A program made the position numbers and the translations under genes. Positions 9,214 to 39,420 of a stretch of 64,000 nucleotides of DNA are shown here, in pieces. Source of the stretch: Raja brachyura (Eukaryota); NCBI GenBank assembly GCA_963514005.1, contig OY740814.1, forward strand, positions 13,950,001-14,014,000, written 5' to 3'. Numbering within the stretch: position 1 is the first letter of the stretch; each line of letters begins with the position of its first letter. Below the pieces are notes generated by a model. That model worked only from the letters and a program-made list of their open reading frames with translations. It was not told the origin of the DNA and made no database searches.

Positions 9214-10617
9214 CAGTGGCTTGCAAAAGTTTTCATACCCCTTGAACTTTTCCACATTTTGTCATGTTACAACCACAAACGTAAATGTATTTTATTGGGA
9301 TTTTATGTGATAGACCAACACAAAGTGATGCATAATTGTGAAGTGGAAGGAAAATGATACATGGTTTTCAAATTTTTTTACAAATAAAAAACTGAAAAGT
9401 GTGGCGTGCAAAAGTATTCAGCCCCCTTTACTCTGATACCCCTAAATAAAATCCAGTGCAACCAATTGCCAACCAAAAATATCCCAAGCTTTGAACATCT
9501 CACGGATCCATCATCCGAAAATGGAAAGAGTATGGCACAACTACAAACCTACCAAGACATGGCCATCCACCTAAACTGACAGGCTGGGCAGAGAGAGCAT
9601 TGATCAGAGAAGCAGCCAAGAGGCCCATGGTAACTCTGGAGGAGCTGCAGAGATCCACAGCTCAGGTGGGAGAATCTGTCCACAGGACAACTATTAGTCG
9701 TGCACTCCACAAATCGGGCCTTTATGGAACAGTGGCAAGAAGAAAGTCATTGTTGAAACAAAGCCATAAGAAGTTCCGTTTGCAGTTTGCCACAAGCCAT
9801 GTGGGGGACACAGCAAACATATGGAGGAAGGTGCTCTGGTCTGATGAGACCAAAATTGAAGTTTTTGGCCTAAATGCAAAACGCTATGTGTGGCGGAAAA
9901 CTAACATCACCCTGAACACACCATCCCCACTGTGAAATGTGGTGGCAGCATCATGCTGTGGGGATGCTTTTCTTCAGCAGAGACAAGGAAGCTGGTCAGC
10001 GTTGATGGGAAGATGGATGGAGCCAAATACAGGGCAATCTTGGAAGAAAACCTGTTAAGAGTCTGCAAAAGACTTGAGACTGGGGCGGAGGTTCACCTTC
10101 CAGCAGGACAACGCCCCTAAACATACAGCCAGAGCTACAATGGAATGGTTTAGATCAAAGCATATTCATGTGTTAGAATGGCCCAGTCAAAGTCCAGACC
10201 TAAATCCAATTGAGAATCTCTGGCAAGACTTGAAAATTGATGTTCACAGATGCTCTCCATCCAATCTGACTGAGCTTGAGATATTTTGCAAAGAGGAATG
10301 GGCAAAATTTTCAGTCCCTAGATGTGCAAAGCTGGTAGAGACATACCCCAAAAGACTTGCAGCTGTAATTGCAGCGAATGGTGGTTCTACAAAGTATTGA
10401 CTCGGGGGCAGAATACTATTGCACGCCACACTTTTCAGTTTTTTTATTTGTAATAAAATTTGGAAACCATGTATCATTTTCCTTCCACTTCACTATTATG
10501 CACCACTTTGTGTTGGTCTATCACATAAAATCCCAATAAAATACATTTACGTTTGTGGTTGTAACGTGACAAAATGTGGAAAAGTTCAAGGGGTATGAAA
10601 ACTTTTGCAAGCCACTG
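9214..10617 (+). mobile_element. Tc1 (DD34E) transposon, IR/DR type, frameshifted transposase
   Basis: About 210-bp near-identical TIRs cagtggcttgcaaaagt; left TA (right TG); [14 protein letters not shown] and SPDLNPIE with 34-aa D-E spacing. Confidence 0.93.
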
Positions 10618-16318: not shown

Positions 16319-16372
16319 CTCCCATTTTTCTTTGCCTTGCATGAGATTGATGAGCATTGTAAAAGTGTTGTG
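16319..16372 (-). CDS. TRPM7: Candidate extra cassette exon (54 nt) (A)QHFYNAHQSHARQRKMG
   Basis: tctccatctttttcag acceptor, GAG|gtaaga donor; symmetric phase 1-1 and stop-free. Confidence 0.5.
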
Positions 16373-17385
16373 CTGAAAAAGATGGAGATCAAGATCCTTA
16401 AACTCTCCCTACACAAAGCCAACGTGGTAGATTATCAAAAGATAGATGGGCTTGGAACACATCAGAATTCCAAAAAGCATTGAAGTCAATCACTTCACAA
16501 AATCATATTCTTCATGCACATCAGTATGTATTTCAGGACAGAATAAACATGTTCACACAAGCTGCCATTTGTCCAGAGTAATGGAGGCCGGTGTTAACAA
16601 CTATGACCATCATTAACAGGACTGCGTCGACCATTGATTTCGGGCATCTTGCTGGAAAGCTGACAATTTCTCAGTTGGTCTGCTCTTCTTTGAGTGGCAC
16701 AGGTATTTTCCAACATCCAAGAAAGATTTTAAATACTGAGAATACTGTTGCCCAACTTGCTGTGTACTTCAATTATCCGGTCTTTAATTAACATTTAAGA
16801 TATGTAATACACAATAAAGTACGGAGCATTTAAATAAATACCTGATAAATAATCAGTTTGAAGTATGTAATAATACTTTGTCTACATAGGGAAAGTTAGC
16901 TAAGCAGAAAGCAAGTAAAGGTATTATGTGAAGCTAATGAAAGAAAAGGATTAGTGTATGCAGAGAAATAAATCCAATTATGTCCTTGCAGCACAGCAAA
17001 CTTAACAGGGTCTGAAAAAAGTTTAAGTATTTTAATTATCAGAGGTTTATTGGGATTAGGTTTTATAACCAGATTTTGATTATTGGCACAAGGCACTGCA
17101 TTCTTTTCCAAAACACTAACTAAAGCTCCATAAAGGTAAAAAAGTTGTCGGTTTAGCATTGTTAAACACATGGTGTATGAATACGAAGTAGCTTGGACAC
17201 AAAACAAGCCAAGATTACTAAATAAAAGTCCTATCGTTGCATAATCACAAAGCTGAGAAAGCTGGAACAAAGCACTGGCGCTCACTACAATAGTAGAGTT
17301 ACATTTTGAGACAGTTTAAAATCAAATGGTTTCAATAAAATATATTATGGAGATTCAATTAGCACATGTTGAATTCAAGTCTTAC

Positions 17386-17797: not shown

Positions 17798-20160
17798 CCA
17801 TATAACCATATAACAATTACAGCACGGAAACAGGCCATCTCGGACCTTCAAGTCCGTGCCGAACAACTTTTTTCCCTTAGTCCCACCTGCCTGCACTCAT
17901 ACCATAACCCTCCATACCCTTCTCATCCATATGCCTATCCAATTTATTTTTAAATGATACCAACGAACCTGCCGCCACCACTTCCACTGGAAGCTCATTC
18001 CACACCGCTACCACTCTCTGAGTAAAGAAGTTCCCCCTCATGTTACCCCTAAACCTCTGTCCCTTAATTCTAAAGTCATGTCCTCTTGTTTGAATCTTCC
18101 CTATTCTCAAAGGGAAAAGCTTGTCCACATTAACTCTGTCTATCCCTCTCATCATTTTAAAGACCTCTATCAAGTCACCCCTTAACCTTCTGCGCTCCAG
18201 AGAATAAAGACCTAACTTATTCAACCTATCTCTGTAACTTAGCTGTTGAAACCCAGGCAACATTCTAGTAAATCTCCTCTGTACCCTCTCTATTTTGTTG
18301 ACATCCTTCCTATAATTGGGCGACCAAAATTGTACACCATACTCCAGATTTGGTCTCACCAACGTCTTGTACAATTTTAACATTACATCCCAGCTTCTAT
18401 ACTCAATGCTCTAATTTATAAAGGCTAGCATACCAAAAGCTTTCTTTACCACCCTATCTATATGAGATTCTACCTTCAAGGAACTATGCACGGTTATTCC
18501 CAGATCCCTCTGTTCAACTGTATTCTTCAATTCCCTACCGTTTACCATGTACGTCCTATTTTGATTTGTCCTGCCAAGGTGTAGCACCTCACATTTATCA
18601 GCATTAAACTCCATCTGCCATCTTTCAGCCCATTTTTCCAACTGGCCTAAATCACTCTGTAGACTTTGGAAATCCTCTTCATTATCCACAACACCCCCTA
18701 TCTTGGTATCATCTGCATACTTACTAATCCAATTTACCACCCCTTCATCCAGATCATTGATGTACATGACAAACAACAAAGGACCCAACACAGATCCCTG
18801 AGGCACCCCACTAGTCACCTGCCTCCAACCCGACAAACAGCCATCCACCATTACCCTCTGGCTTCTCCCATTCAGCCACTGTTGAATCCATCTTGCTATT
18901 CCTGCATTTATACCCAACAGTTGAACCTTCTTAACCAACCTTCCATGAGGAACCTTGTCAAAGGCCTTACTGAAGTCCATATAGACAACATCCACAGCTT
19001 TACCCTCGTCAATTTCCCTAGTAACCTCTTCAAAAAATTCAAGAAGATTAGTCAAACATGACCTTCCAGGCATAAATCCATGTTGACTGTTCCTAATTAG
19101 ACCCTCTTTATCCAGATACTTATATATATTATCTCTAAGTATCTTTTCCATTAATTTGCCCACCACTGAAGTCAAACTAACCGGTCTATAATTGCTAGGT
19201 TTACTTTTAGAACCCTTTTTAAACAATGGAACAACATGCGCAGTATGCCAATCCTCGGGGACTATTCCAGTTTCTAATGACATTTGAAATATTTCTGTCA
19301 TAGCCCCGGCTATTTCTACACTAACTTCCCTCAATGTCCTAGGGAATATCCTGTCAGGACCTGGAGACTTATCCACTTTTATATTTTTCAAAAGTGCCAG
19401 TACTTCTTTTACTTTGAAACTCATAGTATCCATAGCTACTCTACTAGTTTCCCTTACCTCACATAATTCAATATCCTTCTCCTTGGTGAATACCGAAGAA
19501 AAGAAATTGTTCAATATCTCCCCCATCTCTTTTGGCTCTGCAGATAGCTGTCCACTCGGTCTCTCCAATGGACCAATTTTATCCCTTGTTATCCTTTTGC
19601 TATTAACATAGCTGTAGAAACCCTTTGGATTTACTTTCACCTTACTTGCCAAAGCAACCTCATATCTTCTTTTAGCTTTTCTAATTTCTTTCTTTAGATT
19701 CTTTTTACATTCCTTATACTCCTCAAGCACATCATTTACTTCATGCTGCCTATAATTATTGTAGATCTCCCTCTTTTTCCGAACAAGATGTCCAATTTCC
19801 CTTGAAAACCAGGGCTCTTTCCAATTTTTACTGGTTCCTTTCAACCGAACAGGAACATAAAGATTTTGTACTCTTAAAATTTCCCCTTTAAATGTCCTCC
19901 ATTTCTCCTCTACATCTTTCCCATAAAACAAAATGTCCCAGTTCACTCCTTTTAAATCATCTCGCATCTCGTTAAAGTTAGCCTTTCTCCAATCAAAAAT
20001 CTCATCCCTAGGCCCAGTTCTGTCCTTCTCCATAATTATATTGAAACTAATGGTATTGTGATCACTGGACCCGAAGTGCTCCCCTACGCATACCTCCACC
20101 ACCTGTCCCGTCTCATTTCCTAACAGGAGGTCCAGCACTGCCCCTCCTCTAGTAGGCACC
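17798..20160 (-). mobile_element. Young 5'-truncated CR1 (HER1-like) LINE; RT ORF broken only by one in-frame stop at 18411-18413
   Basis: 582 aa plus 168 aa in the same frame; NYRPVSL, DFSKAFD, GVPQGSVLGP and YADD motifs; short tandem catataac tail. Confidence 0.95.
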
Positions 20161-20529
20161 CTATTCCCTATTATATTTTCACATTATCTTATGAAATAGA
20201 AGATCGTATGGAACAACCAAATCTATGCTAGCTCAGCATTTTTTTGGTCTCGTTTTCAGCAACAACTTTTCTCCCACATCCTTCAACGCCCGTGAGCCTT
20301 CCTGGATGTAGTCCTAACCTTCCAATCTACCTCGGAGCACTATTCACACTTTTTGTTTATCTGCACTTTCTCTGTAGCTGCAAAATTATATTCTGGATTG
20401 TTAATTTTCTCTTTTGCACAACCTTTTGCATTCGGGTACAGTATGACCTGCCTGGATAACACACAAAGTTTTTCATTCGATTTTAGTTTACATGACAATA
20501 ATAAACTAATACAAATACCAATTCTCCAT

Positions 20530-25400: not shown

Positions 25401-27019
25401 CAGAGCCCTCCATAATGTTTGGCCACAAAGACCCATCATTTATTTATTTGCATCTGTACTCCACAATTTAGGATTTGTAATAGAAAAAAAAAATCACATG
25501 TGGTTAAAGTGCACATTGTCAGATTTTATTGAAGGGTATTTTTATACATTTTGGTTTCACCATGTAGAAATTACAGCTGAGTTTGTACATAGTCCCCCCA
25601 TTTCAGGGCACCATAATATTTGGGACACATGGCTTCAAAGGTGTTTGTAATTGCTCAGGTGTGTTTAATTGCCTCCTTAATGTAGGTATAAGAGAGTCTC
25701 AGCACCTAGTCTTTCCTCCAGTTTTTCTATCACCTTTGGAAACTTTTATTGTTGTTTATCAACACAAGGACCAAAGTTGCGCCAATGAAAGTCAAATGAG
25801 CCATTATGAGACTGAGAAACAAGAATAAAACTGTTAGAGACCTTAGGCTTACCAAAATCAAATGTTTGGAACATCATTAAGAAGAAAGAGAGCGCTGGTG
25901 AGCTTACTAATCACGAAAGGACTGGCAGACCAAGGAAGACCTCCACAGCTGATGACAGAGGAATTCTCTCTGTAATAAAGAAAAATCCCCAAACACCTGT
26001 CCGACAGATCAGAAACACTCTTCAGGAGTCAGGTGTGGATTTGTCAATGACCATTGTCCGCAGAAGACTTCATGAACAGAAATACAGAGGCTACACTGGA
26101 AGATGCAAACCACTGGTAATCCGCAAAAATAGGATGACCAGGTTACAGTTTGTAAAAGAGCAACCACAGTTCTGGAAAAAGGTCTTGTGGACAGATGAGA
26201 TGAAGATTAACATATCAGAGTGATGGCAAGAGCAAAGAGTGGAAGAAAGAAGGAACTGCCCAAGATCCAAAGCATGCCACCTCATCTGTGAAACACGGTG
26301 GTGGGGTGTTATGCCCTGGGCATGTATGGATGCTGAAGGTACTGGCTCACTTATCTTCATTGATACAACTGCTGATGGTAGTAGCATAATGAATTCTGAA
26401 GTGTATAGACACATCCTATCTGCTCAAGTTCAAACAAATGCCTCAAAACCCATTGACCGGTGGTTCATTCTACAGCAAGACAATGACCCCAAACATACTG
26501 CTAAAGCAACAAAGGAGTTTTTCAAAGCTAAAAAAATGGTCAATTCTTCAGTGGCCAAGTCAATCGCCCGATCTGAACCCAATTTAGCATGCCTTTTATA
26601 TGCTGAAGAGAACACTGAAGGAGACTAGCCCCCAAAGCAAGCATAAACTAAAGATGGCTGCAATACAGGCCTGGCAGAACATCACCAGAGAAGACACCCA
26701 GCAACTGGTGATGTCCATGAATCGCAGACTTCAAGCAGTCATTGCATGCAAAGAATATGCAACAAAATACTAAACATGACTACTTTCATTTACGACATTG
26801 CTGTGTCCCAAACATTATGGTGCCCTGAAATGGGGTGACTATGTATAAACACTGCTGTAATTTCTACATGGTGAAACCAAACTGTATAAATATGGCCTTT
26901 AAATCTGACAACGTGCACTTTAAACACGGGATTTTCTTCTAGTACAAATGTCAAATTGTGGAGTACAGAGGCAAATAAATAAATGATGGGTCTTTGTCCC
27001 AAACATTATGGAGAGAACT
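25401..27019 (+). mobile_element. Second Tc1 family transposon (IR/DR), decayed transposase
   Basis: About 230-bp TIRs with direct repeats ccataatgtttgggaca; WTDE and QQDNDPKH motifs; TA flanks. Confidence 0.9.
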
Positions 27020-27704: not shown

Positions 27705-27799
27705 CAAATCATGAATGGCTCCCCCAGTTATTTTCTGGTCTTTGAATTTCAGCACTCCTCCAGTTCCTAACTTTGGCAGCTCCAGTACATCTTTGTGGC
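27705..27799 (-). CDS. TRPM7: TRPM7 exon ~27 (95 nt) GHKDVLELPKLG...IHDL
   Basis: tttcag acceptor, TTG|gtacac donor; resembles human GHRDSMDL; phases fit. Confidence 0.8.
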
Positions 27800-28129
27800 C
27801 TGAAATATTTACATTTTAGATGAACAGAATTTATTTTATGGTTGCTAATAAAATGACAATACAAAAGAAAATGTTAGTAAAATACATGCAAATTTGAAAC
27901 GTTTCCGATCTGACCTCGCACGCCTAATCCCTACCAACACAGGTACACTTGACTGCGAAGTAAATGGAAATTGATACTTAAAATAGCAAACACTTTGATA
28001 TAAAAATGTCTTTTACAATTAGTTTTTAATTTAATATTGTAAATGCTTCAATCCGTATACCGTTTCTAATTAAAGTAACTGATTTTTAATTCAAGACCAA
28101 GCAAAGGTCTTATCAATTCAGTCTTATGG

Positions 28130-28615
28130 AAACCATTCAGATGTCAAATCTAGGGCCAGGTGGGGGATGGGGGGGAAACCTTTTAAAATCTCTTACCCCG
28201 ACGGAGATGCGATTTTTATCTGTATCGTATCTCCGTCTGCACTGCAGCCTAACGTCGAGGAGTTGGCGGCCTCTTGCTGGAGACCAACTTCGGGAGCTCC
28301 AACCACGGGAGCCTGCAAGACTTACCATTGTGGAGCTCGCTTTCTCTGGTTAGAGACTGACTTCAGGAGCTCGAAGCCACAGGACCTACGATCGCCCCGA
28401 CTGCAGATGGTTCGATTTCCCGACCCCGGGAGAATAAAGAGGAAGATGATTGTACTTTATTGCCTTCCATCAGTGACAAATCCACTGTGGTGGATGTTTA
28501 TGTTAACTTTTATGCAGTTAGGTGTCTTGTGGCTTTTTATTTAGTATGGCTGTATGGTAATTTGAGTTTCACTGTACCTTAATTGGTACATATAACAATA
28601 AACTGATATTTGAAA
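28130..28615 (+). mobile_element. GC-rich non-autonomous retroposon, related to 52074-52906
   Basis: Shared blocks cgtatctccgtctgc, gccttccatca and cactgtggtggatgtt; tail ttcactgtaccttaattggtaca..acaataaa. Confidence 0.65.
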
Positions 28616-28870
28616 CTTAGAAGTAAGGAAACATTCAGAATTGCTAAAAGCAAGCATGGGTTTGAGGTACAAATCTGAGACATTTAAGAGGATGTAGAAA
28701 TGTTACTGAATTGGGTAAAACAGAATGGAACAGTAGTGCCTTATTCAAGCAACATAAATATAGGAAAAAGTGCAATAAAACCAAGGAGAGTCCCAAGCAG
28801 TGCACCAACAGTGAAGTCACCTGCAACCAGCAGAAGTCCCGTAAAGTTACAGTGGTACAGGAGCTCAAAC

Positions 28871-29296
28871 CTCTAAATTGGGTTTTGTTCCACAGGTCAC
28901 TCAGATGTCCTGAACAGTTCCCAATATTGATATGTTGACTTTGCAATTCGATAACCTGCATGAAGCAATCGTCCAAATTTCTTTGCTCTTTTCTGTATTT
29001 TTCATGGGTCTCTTTACTGGATATGGTGGCTGAAGTCAACTCGCCTGTTTGCAGAGGTCCATTCTTTTCAAATTGGTTCTCAAAGTGGTGCATGGCACTT
29101 GGGTTACATTCAGTGCTTCGGTCATTATTATTATCAGTGTCTGTGCTACTCTCAGTATCAATGAATGCATGATTGAGATATCCTTCAGTCTCATAGCAAG
29201 GTGTGGTACGATTACAGCAACAGAAGCTGCAAGCAGGATGAGAAGGACAGTAGCAAATTTCTTCAGGTAAAGCACAAACAACTTCACTATACTTAC
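28871..29296 (-). CDS. TRPM7: Candidate in-frame 426-nt extension of exon ~26 via an alternative donor
   Basis: Frame stays open past the canonical donor; AGA G|gtttga has the same phase (1) as the canonical donor; no transcript evidence available. Confidence 0.45.
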
Positions 29297-30024
29297 CAAC
29301 AAAGGCCCCAAATTCAACAGAACTCCCGTCAGCATCTACACCAGTTTTAATTGAATCGACCGAATCTGGCACAAGCTCCAACTGGCTTGAACCGCTTGGC
29401 TGAGATGGGGTACTAACAAAAAATTTGGCAGATGGGGAGGAGAGATTTGGTATGCTATGGAATGACTGTCCTGGTTTCTGGTCATTGGTCAAAGACTGAG
29501 TTTTCCCAAGGCCAACATGGCTTCTATGCCTAAGTTCAGAGAGAGCTGCTGCTTTTGGTAATAAGGCACAGCCGGAGGAACCAGCCTCTTGAAAATTCTG
29601 TTCATTTTGTTGGGAACCTGGAAGTAATTCCAGACCAAATTTTCTGCACACCTCCTTTGAGGAAGAGTTAACATATTCTTGAAGAAAACCATCCGTACAG
29701 ATAGAATTGCCAGTGTTAATCCCTCGCTGAGGAAAAGAAGAGCCAAAATATCTTCCAATGCTGTGCTTCTTCAACGAAGTTTTAAGTGGGACATCAGAAA
29801 CATTCTCTCCCAGATTTTTTGAAATGCTGAGCTCACGAGTAATTTCATTGTGCACCTCTGTGGCCTCCGAAGCTTTTTGAGCAGTCAGTGCTTTCAATGT
29901 ATCCACTGTAAGAGCTGACAAGTCCTGCAAGTGCCCTATTTGACTGTCCAATGTTTGCAATGAACGCTTTATATAATTTACTCGATCACCTACTTCTTTT
30001 AATTGGATGGACATATTTTCAACT
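29297..30024 (-). CDS. TRPM7: TRPM7 exon ~26 (728 nt) coiled coil and S/T-rich linker [14 protein letters not shown]...EFGAFV
   Basis: ttag acceptor, G|gtaagt donor; [10 protein letters not shown] and EFGAFVG motifs. Confidence 0.95.
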
Positions 30025-31107
30025 CTAAATAGAAAAGAGAAGAAAAGTCTTCATTACTTCACACTAAACTAAATAAATGAAGATCACAAAATGTCTCAGA
30101 TATACAAACTGTATTTATGCAGCACCGTTTCCCCCAAAATATTTTGCAAGATTAATAAATGGACACCAAATCAAAGGGCTGGTGATAGAAGTGGAGGCCA
30201 AGCTTGGTCAAAGAGGATTTAAAGGGTCTAAAAGCAGTGAAATGGTGTGGTGGGGTGGTGATAGATGGTAGTTCAGACACAGAATTCTAGAGCCTTAGGC
30301 CTAGGTGAGCGAATGCATAAATAATAGTGGGACAAAGAACAAGTTATACAACATCAAAGGCGTTTCAATGGAAGGCCTGGTAAGTGTGAAGATGGGGTTT
30401 CATAGAGATAAAGATGGCAATGACCAAATAATTCAAACACTGACAACTTCACCTTGAGCGTATCAGCAAGAACAAGAGCAGTAGATGAGCAGGATATGGC
30501 AAGGGCAGAGATGTTGCTGGTTTGAGTTGATTTATAGAGGCAGAGAGTATGTCAAGTGGATAGCTATATCCACAAGATGGGCTATAATAAGAGAGAGGTT
30601 ACTTATGAAAATGACGGAAGCTTGGAGTCTGTGTCAATGATGGTACAAGGTCAATAGCTCAAATTATGTTTAAGTATAAACCTATGTGTCATCTGGTTCA
30701 ACAAGCAATGGTAAGAAGGGTAAATGATTCAGTGGTAAGCCTCAAAGATGATAGGTTCGCAGCACTTAACTGGAAAGTTAGGACTTTTAGATAATAAATC
30801 AATTATGAAGCAAAAATATTTTTGAACTATGGGCTTCAACTTTTGAACCCTTCAGGTGGGACATTACGATAGCTTTGAGAAAACAGTTTCATTGAAGATA
30901 CCATTTATTTCAGTAAGTTAAACTTCAACTGGATACAACTTTTAAAGTAGTTTGAATCGAACTACAATTCAACAACAATGCATTATTGTACTGGATGATG
31001 TGTGCCATCAGATGAGCAGCCAGCTCATGCTTACCTGTGCCAGTGGTTCTCATGAAACAGTTGGCATTCAGGCAATGAAACTAGTCCCAAACTAGTGCGT
31101 GCAAACT

Positions 31108-35499: not shown

Positions 35500-38400
35500 A
35501 TGTCTTCTGCTAATTTGAATCCCAGCATTCTTGGTTCAGGCACACCTATTCGTTTTCTCACTTCGAATATACGTGGTATGGCCAATCCTATTAAAAAAAT
35601 CAGTCACCTGAAACAGCTTAACTCTGACATAAGTTTTTTTGCAGGAGACTCATCTTAGACTTAAAGATCATCATTGGCTGCAGTCCTCTTGGATAGGTCA
35701 GGTCTACCACTCCAATTTTAATTCTAAAGCTAGAGGGGTTGCTATTTTAATTAATAAAATAATTATGTTTTTATCTACTGATGTTATTGCTGATAAAAAT
35801 GGTCGATATCTTATAGTTGCAGGTACATTAATGCAAATAATGTGTTGTTAGTATATGTCTATGCACCTAACTTTGAAGATGCTGAATTCTCTAATAGATT
35901 ATTTAGTAATATACCTCAATTAATACCTCAATATACCCCATTTGTTATTTTTTGGTGATCTCAATTGTGTGTTTGATCTAATGTTAGATCGTTCTAGTCC
36001 CCGCACTTTATCCCAATCAGCTATGTCTAAATCTTTTTCTGATTTTATGATCCAGAGTGGTTTGGTTGACCCTTGGAGACTTCCTCAACCAAAAAGTTGT
36101 CTTTCTTTTCTCAGGTACATCAATCATATTCAAGAATAGATTACTTCTTTATAGATAATAGTCTCAACTTATGTGTTGTTTCCTCAGATTATTCAAGTAT
36201 TTTAATATCTGATCATGCACCATTATTTCTAGATATTCAGTTATCCATACTTAAATCTACCCCCCCCCCCCCTGGAGATTTAACTCATTATTGTTGGCTG
36301 ATAAAACATTTTGTGAATTTGATGCAAACTCAATTGATGACTTTCTCTTCTTTAACCAGAGTGAATCTACATATTTTTCATTAATTTGGGAGTCAGTGAA
36401 AGCTTTTCTTAGAGGGCAGATTATTTCATATTCTCCTATTCTAATAAAAAACGCAATACCAGGCTTACATCTGCTATTAAAAGCCTCATCAAGAATGCTC
36501 ATCCGATCCTTCTCCAGAACAATTTAAGAAGTGTCTTAATCTTCATGCGGAGTTTGATCTTATTTCTACCAGAAGTGCTGAGCGACGGCTGTTACAAACT
36601 CATGGCACTTATTATGAACATGGTAACAAAGCAAATCGATTACTAGCACACCAATTGAAGTGTTAGTTCACCTCACGTCTTATATCTAAAATTAATAATT
36701 TTTTTAACACGACTGTTACGGATCTTGTGGAAATTAATGCCACATTGAAATCATTTTATTCTTCCCTATACAAATCAGAATTCCATGCTGATAGTACCAA
36801 AATGAATCAGTTCCTGGCCAATCTTGAGAATCCTACCATTGATTCTGACCGTGCAAAAGAATTGGATGCTCCACTTTCCCTTGAAGAACTACGTTTTGCA
36901 ATTGCAGCAAGTCAATCTAACAATTTCCAATAGAGTTTCTAAAGAATTTTATTGATAAATTAGGACCTCTACTTTTGTTGATGTTCAATGAATCTTTGGC
37001 AAATTGTTTGTTACCTCCCACACCGACTCAAGTGTCAATAGTTCTTCTTTTAAAGAAAGATAAAGACCCCGCTTCCCGTGGTTTTTATAGACCTCTGTCT
37101 TTACTGAATGCTGATGTAAACGTTTTGGCCAAAATTATTGCTCTCCGTCTAGAGAGGGTTTTGTCTAGTAGTATTTCTGAGCAACAGAATGGCTTTATTA
37201 AGGGACGCCATTTATTTTTCAACATTCGTACTCTTATTTATTCAATACATTCTGATAATTTACCTGAGATTGTAATTTCATTAGATGCTGAGAAGGCATT
37301 CGCTAGGGATGAGTGGGGGTACCTATCATGGTATTGAAGAAATTTGGTTTTGGAGATAAATTTATTAGTTGGGTAAGCTGGTGGTCAAACAACTGATATT
37401 CATTCTGAATAATTTGCACTAGAACGTGGGACATGTCAGGGCTGTCCTTTATCTCCATCTCTCTTTGCTTTGGCTATTGAACCAGTGGCCATTTCTTTAA
37501 GGTCCTCCATTTCCTTTAAAGGTGTTATTCGTAACGGTGTTGAATATCGTTTATCTCTGTTTGCGGATGATTTGTTGCTATCAATTCTGGTTATTTTTCA
37601 GGATATAAACAAAATCTTCAAAAGAGTGAATGTTACCCCATTAACAGGTTCGCAACTTCAGGAAGCTGATTTTCCCTTTAAAATCACTAGTTCTGAATTT
37701 AAGTATAATTGGCATCAATATGACGCATACATTCTCAGGTCTTTTCTCTGCCAACTTTACCCTGCTCATGACTAAAGTGACGTCAGATTTTCAGAGATGT
37801 AGTAATCTGCCTCTCTCTTTAATTGGGAAGATTAATCTTGTTAAAATTAATGTTTTGCCTAAATTTCAATCAATTCCCTTATTCTTACCAAAACATTTCT
37901 TTGACTCCTTAGACAAAATGATTAGTTCCATTATTTGGGGTGCGAAGCCCCCGAGGGTCCGTAAATTATTACTCCAACGATGTAAGTTCAGTGGAGGTCT
38001 TTCAATTCTACTACTGGGCTACTCACATACATAAAATACGTTGTTGGGTTGATTTTCCTTATTTAGCTTGGTGCGAACTGGAAGCCGCTCTTGCCCTCCT
38101 TCATCCTCTATATCTGCTCTTATATATTCCTCTCTTCCAACCAAGATTTCATTGTTTATCAACAATCCTGTTGTGCTTAATACTTTAAAATTTGGTATCA
38201 ATTCAGGAAACATTTCAAATTTGTAGCTGCATCTCCCTTAGGTCCATTATGTAACAATCACCTGTTTCCTCCCTCACATTTGGATTCTGTTTTTTTGGTA
38301 TGGCATAACAAAAGTATACAATGTTTTCTTGATATGTTTTCAGATGCTATTTTTATCAGCTTTACCAATTTGTCATCATTGTATGGATTACCAACAAATC

Positions 38401-39420
38401 ATTTTTTTAGGTACTTCCAAGTTAGACACTTTGTTTCTAAATGTTTTTCCAATTTTTCACTTCACCTCCACGACAAATATGGGATAGTTTGTTTACTTTC
38501 AAGACACAACAAAGAGGGATTGTTTCAGAGATGTATAACCACATTCTGGATCTTTGCGATCAGTCCAACTCTAAAACAAGGGCTGCTTGGGAGGACGAGC
38601 TGGGACTTCAACTTACTGAGGAGTGGTGGGATAACGTTGTGGATGGGCTATGTACTGTCACGTCTTGCGCTCGTCTTGCACTCATTCAGTTTAAGGTTAT
38701 TCACAGGGTCCATTTTTCTAAATCAAGACTGTCTGGGATTTATGCAGAGGTGGAGGATAAATGTGATACATGTTCGGGCCCACACTGCCATCTGAGCCAT
38801 ATGTTTTTTTCTTTGTCCACGATGACATAATTTTTGGTCCGGCTACTTTTATATAATGTCTACCACAATGGGAATACCTCTACAGCCCTGTCCATTGATT
38901 GCCATCTTTGGGGCCCCGGATGAGTCAAGGTCGATTAAACTCTGTGCAAAAAGAAATTATTAATTTTACATATTTAATAGCCAGACGTCGCCTACTCCTA
39001 CAGTGGAAACCCCCGAACCCACCCACAGTGGCTCAAAGATGTAATGTTTTTTCTTAAACTTGAGAAAATTAAATATACATTGAGGGGATGTACTGATAAT
39101 TTGTTTCACAAATGGCAACCTTTTTTTATCATGCTTTACAGACTTGCAGGTTCTGCCAGACTAAGGGCTGGTTCGTTAAATGTTGTTATGTGTTGGTGCA
39201 CTCTTCCCTCTTAATTAGCCAGGGTGGGGTGGGTGGGATATGTGACCGATGGTAAGGTTGCATTATATATATAATTTTCTTTTTTAATGTTATATTTCTT
39301 TCATGTTTTTGTATATTTTTGTATTTTTCTTTTGCGTATTATTTGAGTGTTTCTTATTAACGTCCCTTTTCTTTTTTGTGTTGATTTATTTTAAATGAAA
39401 AACTAATAATAATAAAAAAA
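35500..39420 (+). mobile_element. Decayed L1-clade LINE ORF2 (APE, RT, CCHC) with A-rich tail
   Basis: QETHL...KARGVAIL, FGDLN, YSRIDYFF, YRPLSLLN, SLDAEKAF, LFADD and CDTC...HMF across frameshifts; ends aataataataaaaaaa. Confidence 0.92.

Follow-up and report, generated by a model that had tools for sequence, protein, structure and literature searches.

TRPM6 and TRPM7 govern the entry of magnesium, zinc and calcium, and their sorting between the surface and vesicles is poorly defined; TRPM7 is located at both sites (PMC10903462). The splice variants that the available part of a review lists for the pair are all channel-less (PMC12799467). A review of TRPM6/7 trafficking names, in the part available, no NxxF signal and no NUMB for either channel (PMC11300232), and NUMB is mentioned only with TRPV6 in the accessible text of PMC8222984. 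Sorting signals of this type have been described in other membrane proteins. The PTB domain of NUMB binds NxxF/Y and takes the ALK peptide GGHVNMAFSQS with a Kd of 0.7 µM, and NUMB promotes ALK endocytosis (PMC6927325); NPC1L1 exposes YVNxxF to NUMB (PMC11749127), and the FERM domain of SNX17 recognises NPxY/NxxY cargo (PMC9006456). All these sources are cited here for the portions available; a further paper (PMC10761173) concerns artificial truncations. We found no publication on a long TRPM7 isoform or on the TRPM6/7 motif described below, most subscription journals lying outside the coverage of the search. Here we describe a ray TRPM7 exon with two working donors, the distal of which adds 142 codons and a motif shared with TRPM6. 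An alternative donor is an ordinary class of event, and the value of this one lies in the shared motif.

The window (the whole 64-kb stretch of Raja brachyura DNA that was analysed) carries on its minus strand most of one TRPM7 gene, with exons spanning 63431 to 1540 in a tblastn search with Pristis TRPM7. All features below are on the minus strand unless stated. By count against human exon numbering we take the exon at 29297..30024 (728 nt in its short form, contig cover 29296-30026) to be exon 26. Its closest relatives are those of sawfish (the Pristis query, 94% identity) and rays (90-92%), and it encodes the last part of the tetramerisation coiled coil followed by the start of the S/T-rich linker, as placed by Pfam TRPM_tetra on the relative P0003. 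The exon ends at the proximal or 'canonical' donor TTG/GTAAGT (29291..29299, phase 1), joined to exon 27 in contigs of three sequencing runs (X1, X2 and X6). Exon 27 lies at 27705..27799, and its acceptor is common to both donors.

Several other features were observed in the window. A short exon of about 18-21 codons (16320-16382, reading ...QHFYNAHQSHARQRKMG) occurs in shark and ray TRPM7; Hemitrygon isoform X4 skips it and the tetrapod rows examined show no sign of it, so that the linker seems to hold two alternative segments. Long intronic open frames at 17877-20183 (minus) and 36921-38830 (plus), one of them open for 590 aa, are presumably LINE-type reverse-transcriptase-like sequences, and we take intronic stretches at 9495-10400 and 25816-26628 (both plus) to be broken Tc1/mariner-like transposase fragments.

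The initial annotation had drawn attention to 217 codons that stay open beyond the exon 26 donor at 29297, up to a stop at 28644-28646, and the frame is indeed open throughout. None of 200,000 base shuffles was open across the whole stretch, and in-frame runs beyond the ends of the other 32 TRPM7 exon matches were 0-28 codons long. The signal sits in the first 142 codons rather than in the last 75: 4 of 100,000 shuffles of the former were open, as against 3,748 of 100,000 for the tail, which is unremarkable by itself. The boundary between the two parts is the distal donor that had been proposed at 28871, which adds 426 nt, exactly 142 codons, in phase 1. The resulting extension (28871..29296) brings exon 26 to 1154 nt and contains no stop in frame, whereas the two remaining frames have 2 and 23. 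It had been described as lying in AT-rich intron, which holds in part: at about 41% GC it falls just short of the upstream exon (about 42-46%) and exceeds the downstream intron (32-39%). Protein and DNA searches of the genome each returned a single match to it, and an origin from an exonised repeat was rejected, as no similar copies occur elsewhere in the genome. A search against Rfam gave one chance match (20.4 bits, cut-off 50). The distal donor itself, GAG/GTTTGA (28865..28873, phase 1), has a weak consensus, with fewer than six of nine positions matching.

Both donors are used. Four of 24 runs, from four studies, were examined as contigs; they are presumed to be RNA, none of those listed being on record as such, and none is a DNA run. 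The predicted splice of 28871 to 27799, bounded by GT..AG, was present in three of the four (contig depth 40.2 in X1, 10.2 in X2 and 4.67 in X7), and the short joint was found at depths of 45.1 in X1, 39.6 in X2 and 14.2 in X6. Both joints thus occur in X1 and X2, the long one alone in X7 and the short one alone in X6; as contig depth is a poor proxy for expression, we conclude from these values only that both forms coexist. Contigs cover the insert in all four runs, as had been anticipated, those of X7 only from 28870 to 29190. The insert contig of X1 is identical to the window, and the adjoining unique intron bins are empty in that run. With no second genomic copy of the extension, there is nothing that could mimic the 28871-27799 joint. 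Exon 26 therefore has two working, frame-preserving donors onto one acceptor. That the long form is a real coding isoform seems to us almost certain, its coding status being argued from conservation.

A search with exon 26 plus the insert returned 1093 matches, of which the best 120 were taken; the search covered proteins of up to 2000 aa, and full-length long forms fall beyond that range. Among these 120, EFGAFVG is followed by KY in 90, KF in 1, HK in 21 and HR in 8. The entire insert is spanned by 49 of the 90 KY models and the other 41 hold fragments. Seven of the 49 are joined to exon 27 in the register of the ray gene, 41 read into the intron and stop, and one joins elsewhere, all of these models being predictions, of which those of Ensembl type are not mutually independent. 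The exon-27-joined models come from birds, a lizard and snakes, and five further cluster members are joined likewise; for turtle, crocodile and tuatara it is the read-through models that include the insert, and models of the chimaera Callorhinchus contain both of its ends. Annotated bird and squamate TRPM7 carry a homologous insert of 133-142 residues with the same end junction, which makes the isoform ancient.

Pairwise BLASTP values between the ray insert and amniote inserts ranged from 1e-13 to 0.005. They were 8e-13 over 140 aa for falcon, 6e-10 for turtle, 8e-13 for crocodile, 1e-13 for tuatara and 8e-7 and 6e-9 for lizards, with 5e-7 for the Callorhinchus end; the Crotalus insert gave no BLASTP match to that of the ray. 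Searched by itself against proteins of 250-2000 aa, the insert had one match among 31 candidates, a read-through ORF; as full-length long forms exceed this size range, the result does not speak for absence. A profile search of 1.84 billion representatives gave four matches, two of them sauropsid-like read-through fragments and two unrelated repeat proteins, and added no lineage with the insert. The conserved frame for which the initial annotation had proposed a search in related loci is therefore present in birds, reptiles and pieces of a chimaera protein; it was absent from the chondrichthyan RefSeq isoforms among the matches of at most 2000 aa. From these matches the Hemitrygon and Mobula isoforms X1 and X2 are missing, isoform X3 of these species being 1912 aa long. 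The statement of the initial annotation that mammalian canonical TRPM7 does not have the insert agrees with the four mammalian rows, all of which are without it, and it was likely lost from mammalian TRPM7, to judge from these alignments. The Latimeria TRPM7 rows also have no insert, and the best 120 of 1093 matches include no teleost or amphibian TRPM7.

Such conservation largely refutes an explanation by neutrality, in which the extension would be a relic or a chance open frame exposed by leaky splicing. The insert does evolve faster than the core exon, with 5 of 142 against 4 of 239 residues substituted in P0003, and three of the five changes listed within it for run X2 are non-synonymous. 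Against this, a batoid and sauropsids have retained the frame, the length (133-142 aa), the end point and the motif, and in X1 the two joints are at nearly equal depth; we regard a neutral origin as very improbable. Residues invariant in the 10-row insert alignment are G1, K2 and Y3 (an invariance partly imposed by the donor sequence), P11, G39, F45, L135 and W136. The last two belong to the conserved end of the extension, LWNKTQFR (28872..28895), which reads LWTKSKPQ in birds and LWNCSKVQ in Polypterus TRPM6.

Beyond the distal donor, the open read-through tail (28644..28870, 75 codons to a TAG) had been judged intron-like, and this assessment is upheld: the frame ends early or shifts in the close relatives P0003 and P0004. 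Contigs pass 28870 in two of the four runs (28569-28899 at depth 14.1 in X2; 28600-28884 at depth 2.47 in X6). The main product might then be a kinase-less channel, or a transcript bound for decay, made by reading past the weak far donor. The X2 and X6 contigs are consistent with this, as are cover of the 3' end of the same intron in X2, the 41 models among the best 120 of 1093 matches that enter the tail and then stop, and a conserved donor-like element within it. Tail frame and length, however, vary among amniotes as they do between the close relatives, five of the six tail changes listed for X2 alter the residue, X1 and X7, which have the spliced long joint, have no tail cover, and unspliced pre-mRNA accounts for the tail contigs. 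We thus consider read-through unlikely as the main outcome and retain the spliced, coding long form. In X2, contigs were observed at both ends of the intron (27772-28252 and 28569-28899), whereas the preceding intron had no cover at 30039-30100; the intron that follows the far donor may thus be selectively retained. The region 28128-28673 holds one or more high-copy repeats with unrelated contig pile-ups to a depth of 5,367, and an AATAAA lies near 28540.

The donor-like element, CTGGTTGCAG/GTGACT (28815..28830), lies 50 nt past the distal donor and matches the consensus at eight of nine positions, which makes CAG/GTGACT at 28821 the best consensus donor of the region. A splice there would lengthen the exon by 476 nt and put exon 27 out of frame, and no joint at 28821 occurred in the four runs examined. 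As far as its conservation is visible, namely through translations, the element reads WLQVT in the window and turtle, whereas a close relative has VAGD, crocodile SGCR and lizards either VVGD or VSGD. It thus appears in three frames across species, which suggests conservation as nucleic acid and not as peptide, and it is likely a splicing regulator. A hairpin over the far donor was also considered and rejected (z -0.04, no stable structure).

The first residues of the insert are rich in cysteine, as the initial annotation had noted: eight of the first 34 (positions 8, 15, 17, 23, 26, 27, 28 and 34; 29196..29276) are Cys. It had proposed a metal-binding or palmitoylated module, for which partial conservation offers some encouragement. 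Among the first 45 insert residues, birds, turtle, tuatara, crocodile and lizards have 4-7 Cys, and among nine amniote rows C17 is kept in eight, C27 in six, and C8 and C34 in five each. Acylation beside a sorting motif could, moreover, serve as an accessory role. No Cys is invariant, however, four of the eight ray positions are Cys in no amniote row, snake inserts have just one or two, and in TRPM6 the cluster before the motif is absent. The insert has no Pfam match and no PDB match below E 1.8, and the ESM Atlas held no usable match for the ray or the falcon insert. The pLDDT of the AlphaFold model is 43-51 over the Cys-rich stretch and averages 42 over the insert, no residue reaching 70, at an alignment depth of only 10 sequences; it suggests a disordered linker. 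The invariant Cys/His ligands, fixed spacing and compact fold of a zinc module were thus not found. The known S-acylation site of TRPM7 lies elsewhere, at C1143/1144/1146 in the TRP domain, according to the available part of PMC10903462. The cysteine module as the conserved function is accordingly not supported, and we rate the chance that the insert acts chiefly in this way as slight.

Conservation peaks instead in the motif GYLNHAF (29163..29183), a hydrophobic-x-N-x-x-F string; both EGYLNHAF and the acidic S/T/N patch directly after it (29121..29159) are present as first described, and in TRPM6 and the amniote inserts the motif is likewise followed by acidic residues. Within the insert, GYxNxxF is the chief conserved element: EGYLNHAFI is the top 9-mer of the 10-row insert alignment (conservation 0.79, median 0.53), and among 16 aligned TRPM6 linkers the motif 9-mer shares second rank (0.86, median 0.42). 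It is intact in eight of the ten aligned inserts, and both aligned snakes keep the insert with the motif broken (GYAKSGF, GDVNSGF). In TRPM6, G[YFH]xNxx[FY] was found in 117 of 120 proteins, the other three being off by one residue, and its carriers include rays and bichir at one end and macaque and cat at the other; all TRPM6 matches, like all intact TRPM7 matches, end in F. None of 50 short-form TRPM7 proteins has the motif after the coiled coil. Its offset from the coiled coil is 240-249 in TRPM7 (n=58) and has a median of 239 in TRPM6 (n=116).

The genome holds a TRPM6 gene for direct comparison. The closest paralogue lies on G000:C3 at 55.4 Mb with a kinase exon 43 kb further on, and each of its best matches is either unnamed or annotated as TRPM6. 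Good alignment with the insert profile is limited to one part of its exon 26, DGGYINWAFNEDD. With the donor assigned from sequence alone, this exon is 1142 nt long against 1154 nt for long TRPM7, equal modulo 3, and the TRPM6 of Polypterus and Latimeria (bichir and coelacanth) has KLW near the same exon end. A local hhalign comparison of the TRPM6 segment with the TRPM7 insert reached a probability of 63% over 18 columns, and a global one 18%. Clear similarity between the two proteins is confined to the motif, so convergence is conceivable; length, phase and position together nevertheless make it likely that exon 26 of the TRPM6/7 ancestor was the long one and ended at the distal donor. The 'canonical' TRPM7 donor would then likely be an internal donor that clips the motif, and canonical TRPM7 a derived form. 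The shark TRPM6 models P0170 and P0171 cover only 76% of exon 26 and depart from it shortly beyond the motif, a hint that TRPM6 may also have an internal donor, in this case with the motif retained. The coiled-coil exon has a third paralogue; this one (L004, G000:C3:98913000-98913161, minus), with a 508-aa open frame, is presumably the last exon of TRPM3 or TRPM1.

The position of the motif, cytoplasmic and between coiled coil and kinase, suits a sorting signal. Its NxxF core with an upstream hydrophobic residue (YLNHAF) fits the definition of a PTB ligand (PMC6927325), and the TRPM6 sequence GGYVNWAFS is identical to the ALK NUMB ligand at seven of nine positions. Hydrophobic-x-N-x-x-F/Y strings are common, at 2-6 in each of five proteins checked; since the motif is short, of a common kind and broken in two snakes, the adaptor step is one that we infer. 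Binding of a PTB or FERM adaptor to it is probable on this comparison, and NUMB itself, suggested by analogy with ALK, is a candidate we take seriously without favouring it. Of the 21 PTB-like matches in the genome, the sole intron-free ORF (PF00640, 218 aa, L013:1280-1936, plus, on the 15.6-kb contig G000:C116) is, we presume, FAM43-like and unlike NUMB.

With the isoform real, its motif might instead serve another partner or role, such as recycling through the SNX17 FERM domain, a different PTB adaptor or an intramolecular contact, or the insert might work as a spacer, with an effect on autophosphorylation or cleavage of the kinase. The core of SNX17 cargo, NPxY/NxxY, ends in Y (PMC9006456). 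The ray motif ends in F, which SNX17 may also tolerate. In favour of these options, SNX17 does recognise NPxY/NxxY cargo, the insert lies within an autophosphorylated S/T-rich linker upstream of a cleavable kinase (PMC12799467, available part), and snakes retain its length without the motif. The universal final F in TRPM6 and intact TRPM7 matches, and the Gly-Gly-aromatic lead-in that fits the NUMB-bound ALK peptide, speak against them, and we hold them to be unlikely.

Our preferred reading is that the two-donor exon 26 toggles a 142-residue insert with a putative PTB-adaptor signal that would alter internalisation or recycling, and we lean towards it. Use of the distal donor adds 142 residues, predicted to be unfolded, that carry GYxNxxF; the motif would bind a PTB-type sorting adaptor, NUMB for example, and binding would alter internalisation or recycling of the channel. 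Use of the internal donor would remove the motif and leave the kinase in frame, and the weak far donor with the conserved donor-like element 50 nt downstream would set the ratio of long to short forms. TRPM6 would have kept the ancestral long exon and TRPM7 would have gained the internal donor. The fullest version, in which the switch predates the split of sharks and bony vertebrates and toggles a putative NUMB endocytic signal that is permanent in TRPM6 and lost in mammalian TRPM7, we put forward tentatively, as more doubtful than any of its parts named above. If true, human TRPM6 has an unrecognised internalisation signal that sets the number of surface channels and magnesium uptake, and there is a sequence-level reason for the differing traffic of TRPM6, TRPM7 and their heteromers. 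A seven-residue motif that extends from ray to primate in TRPM6 and nearly matches a measured NUMB ligand can be tested on the mammalian protein, and 'canonical' TRPM7 is recast as a likely derived, clipped form.

Among known systems, the nearest are automated TRPM7 models: XP_040455828.1 (Falco naumanni isoform X2), XP_053128523.1 and XP_053128524.1 (Hemicordylus), XP_058012493.1 (Ahaetulla isoform X3) and KAM4660978.1 (Amazona). Their inserts, like that of the ray, start after EFGAFV, are 133-141 aa long and have the same join to exon 27; they are 15-29% identical to the ray insert by alignment, as predictions only, and the bird and Hemicordylus (lizard) models, like the ray, have an unbroken motif. 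The insert is thus already in automated bird and reptile annotation, yet apparently undescribed in print. The ray insert differs from these sauropsid models in coming from a cartilaginous fish and having the support of spliced contigs. TRPM6 exon 26 resembles the long TRPM7 exon in its near-equal length, phase and motif offset, and in the exon end of Polypterus and Latimeria; unlike TRPM7, it has the motif in essentially all models, has no Cys cluster and has little that aligns outside the motif. As far as the available parts of the sources go, the signals of ALK (PMC6927325) and NPC1L1 (PMC11749127) share with the ray motif the N/F spacing, a hydrophobic residue before N and a cytoplasmic position, and ALK shares the Gly-Gly lead-in as well; NUMB binding has been shown for those two, whereas the ray motif is known from sequence and is switched by splicing. 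The described splice variants of TRPM6 and TRPM7, N-terminal segments fused to the kinase, drop the channel (PMC12799467, available part), whereas the long form of the ray keeps both channel and kinase and lengthens the linker between them.
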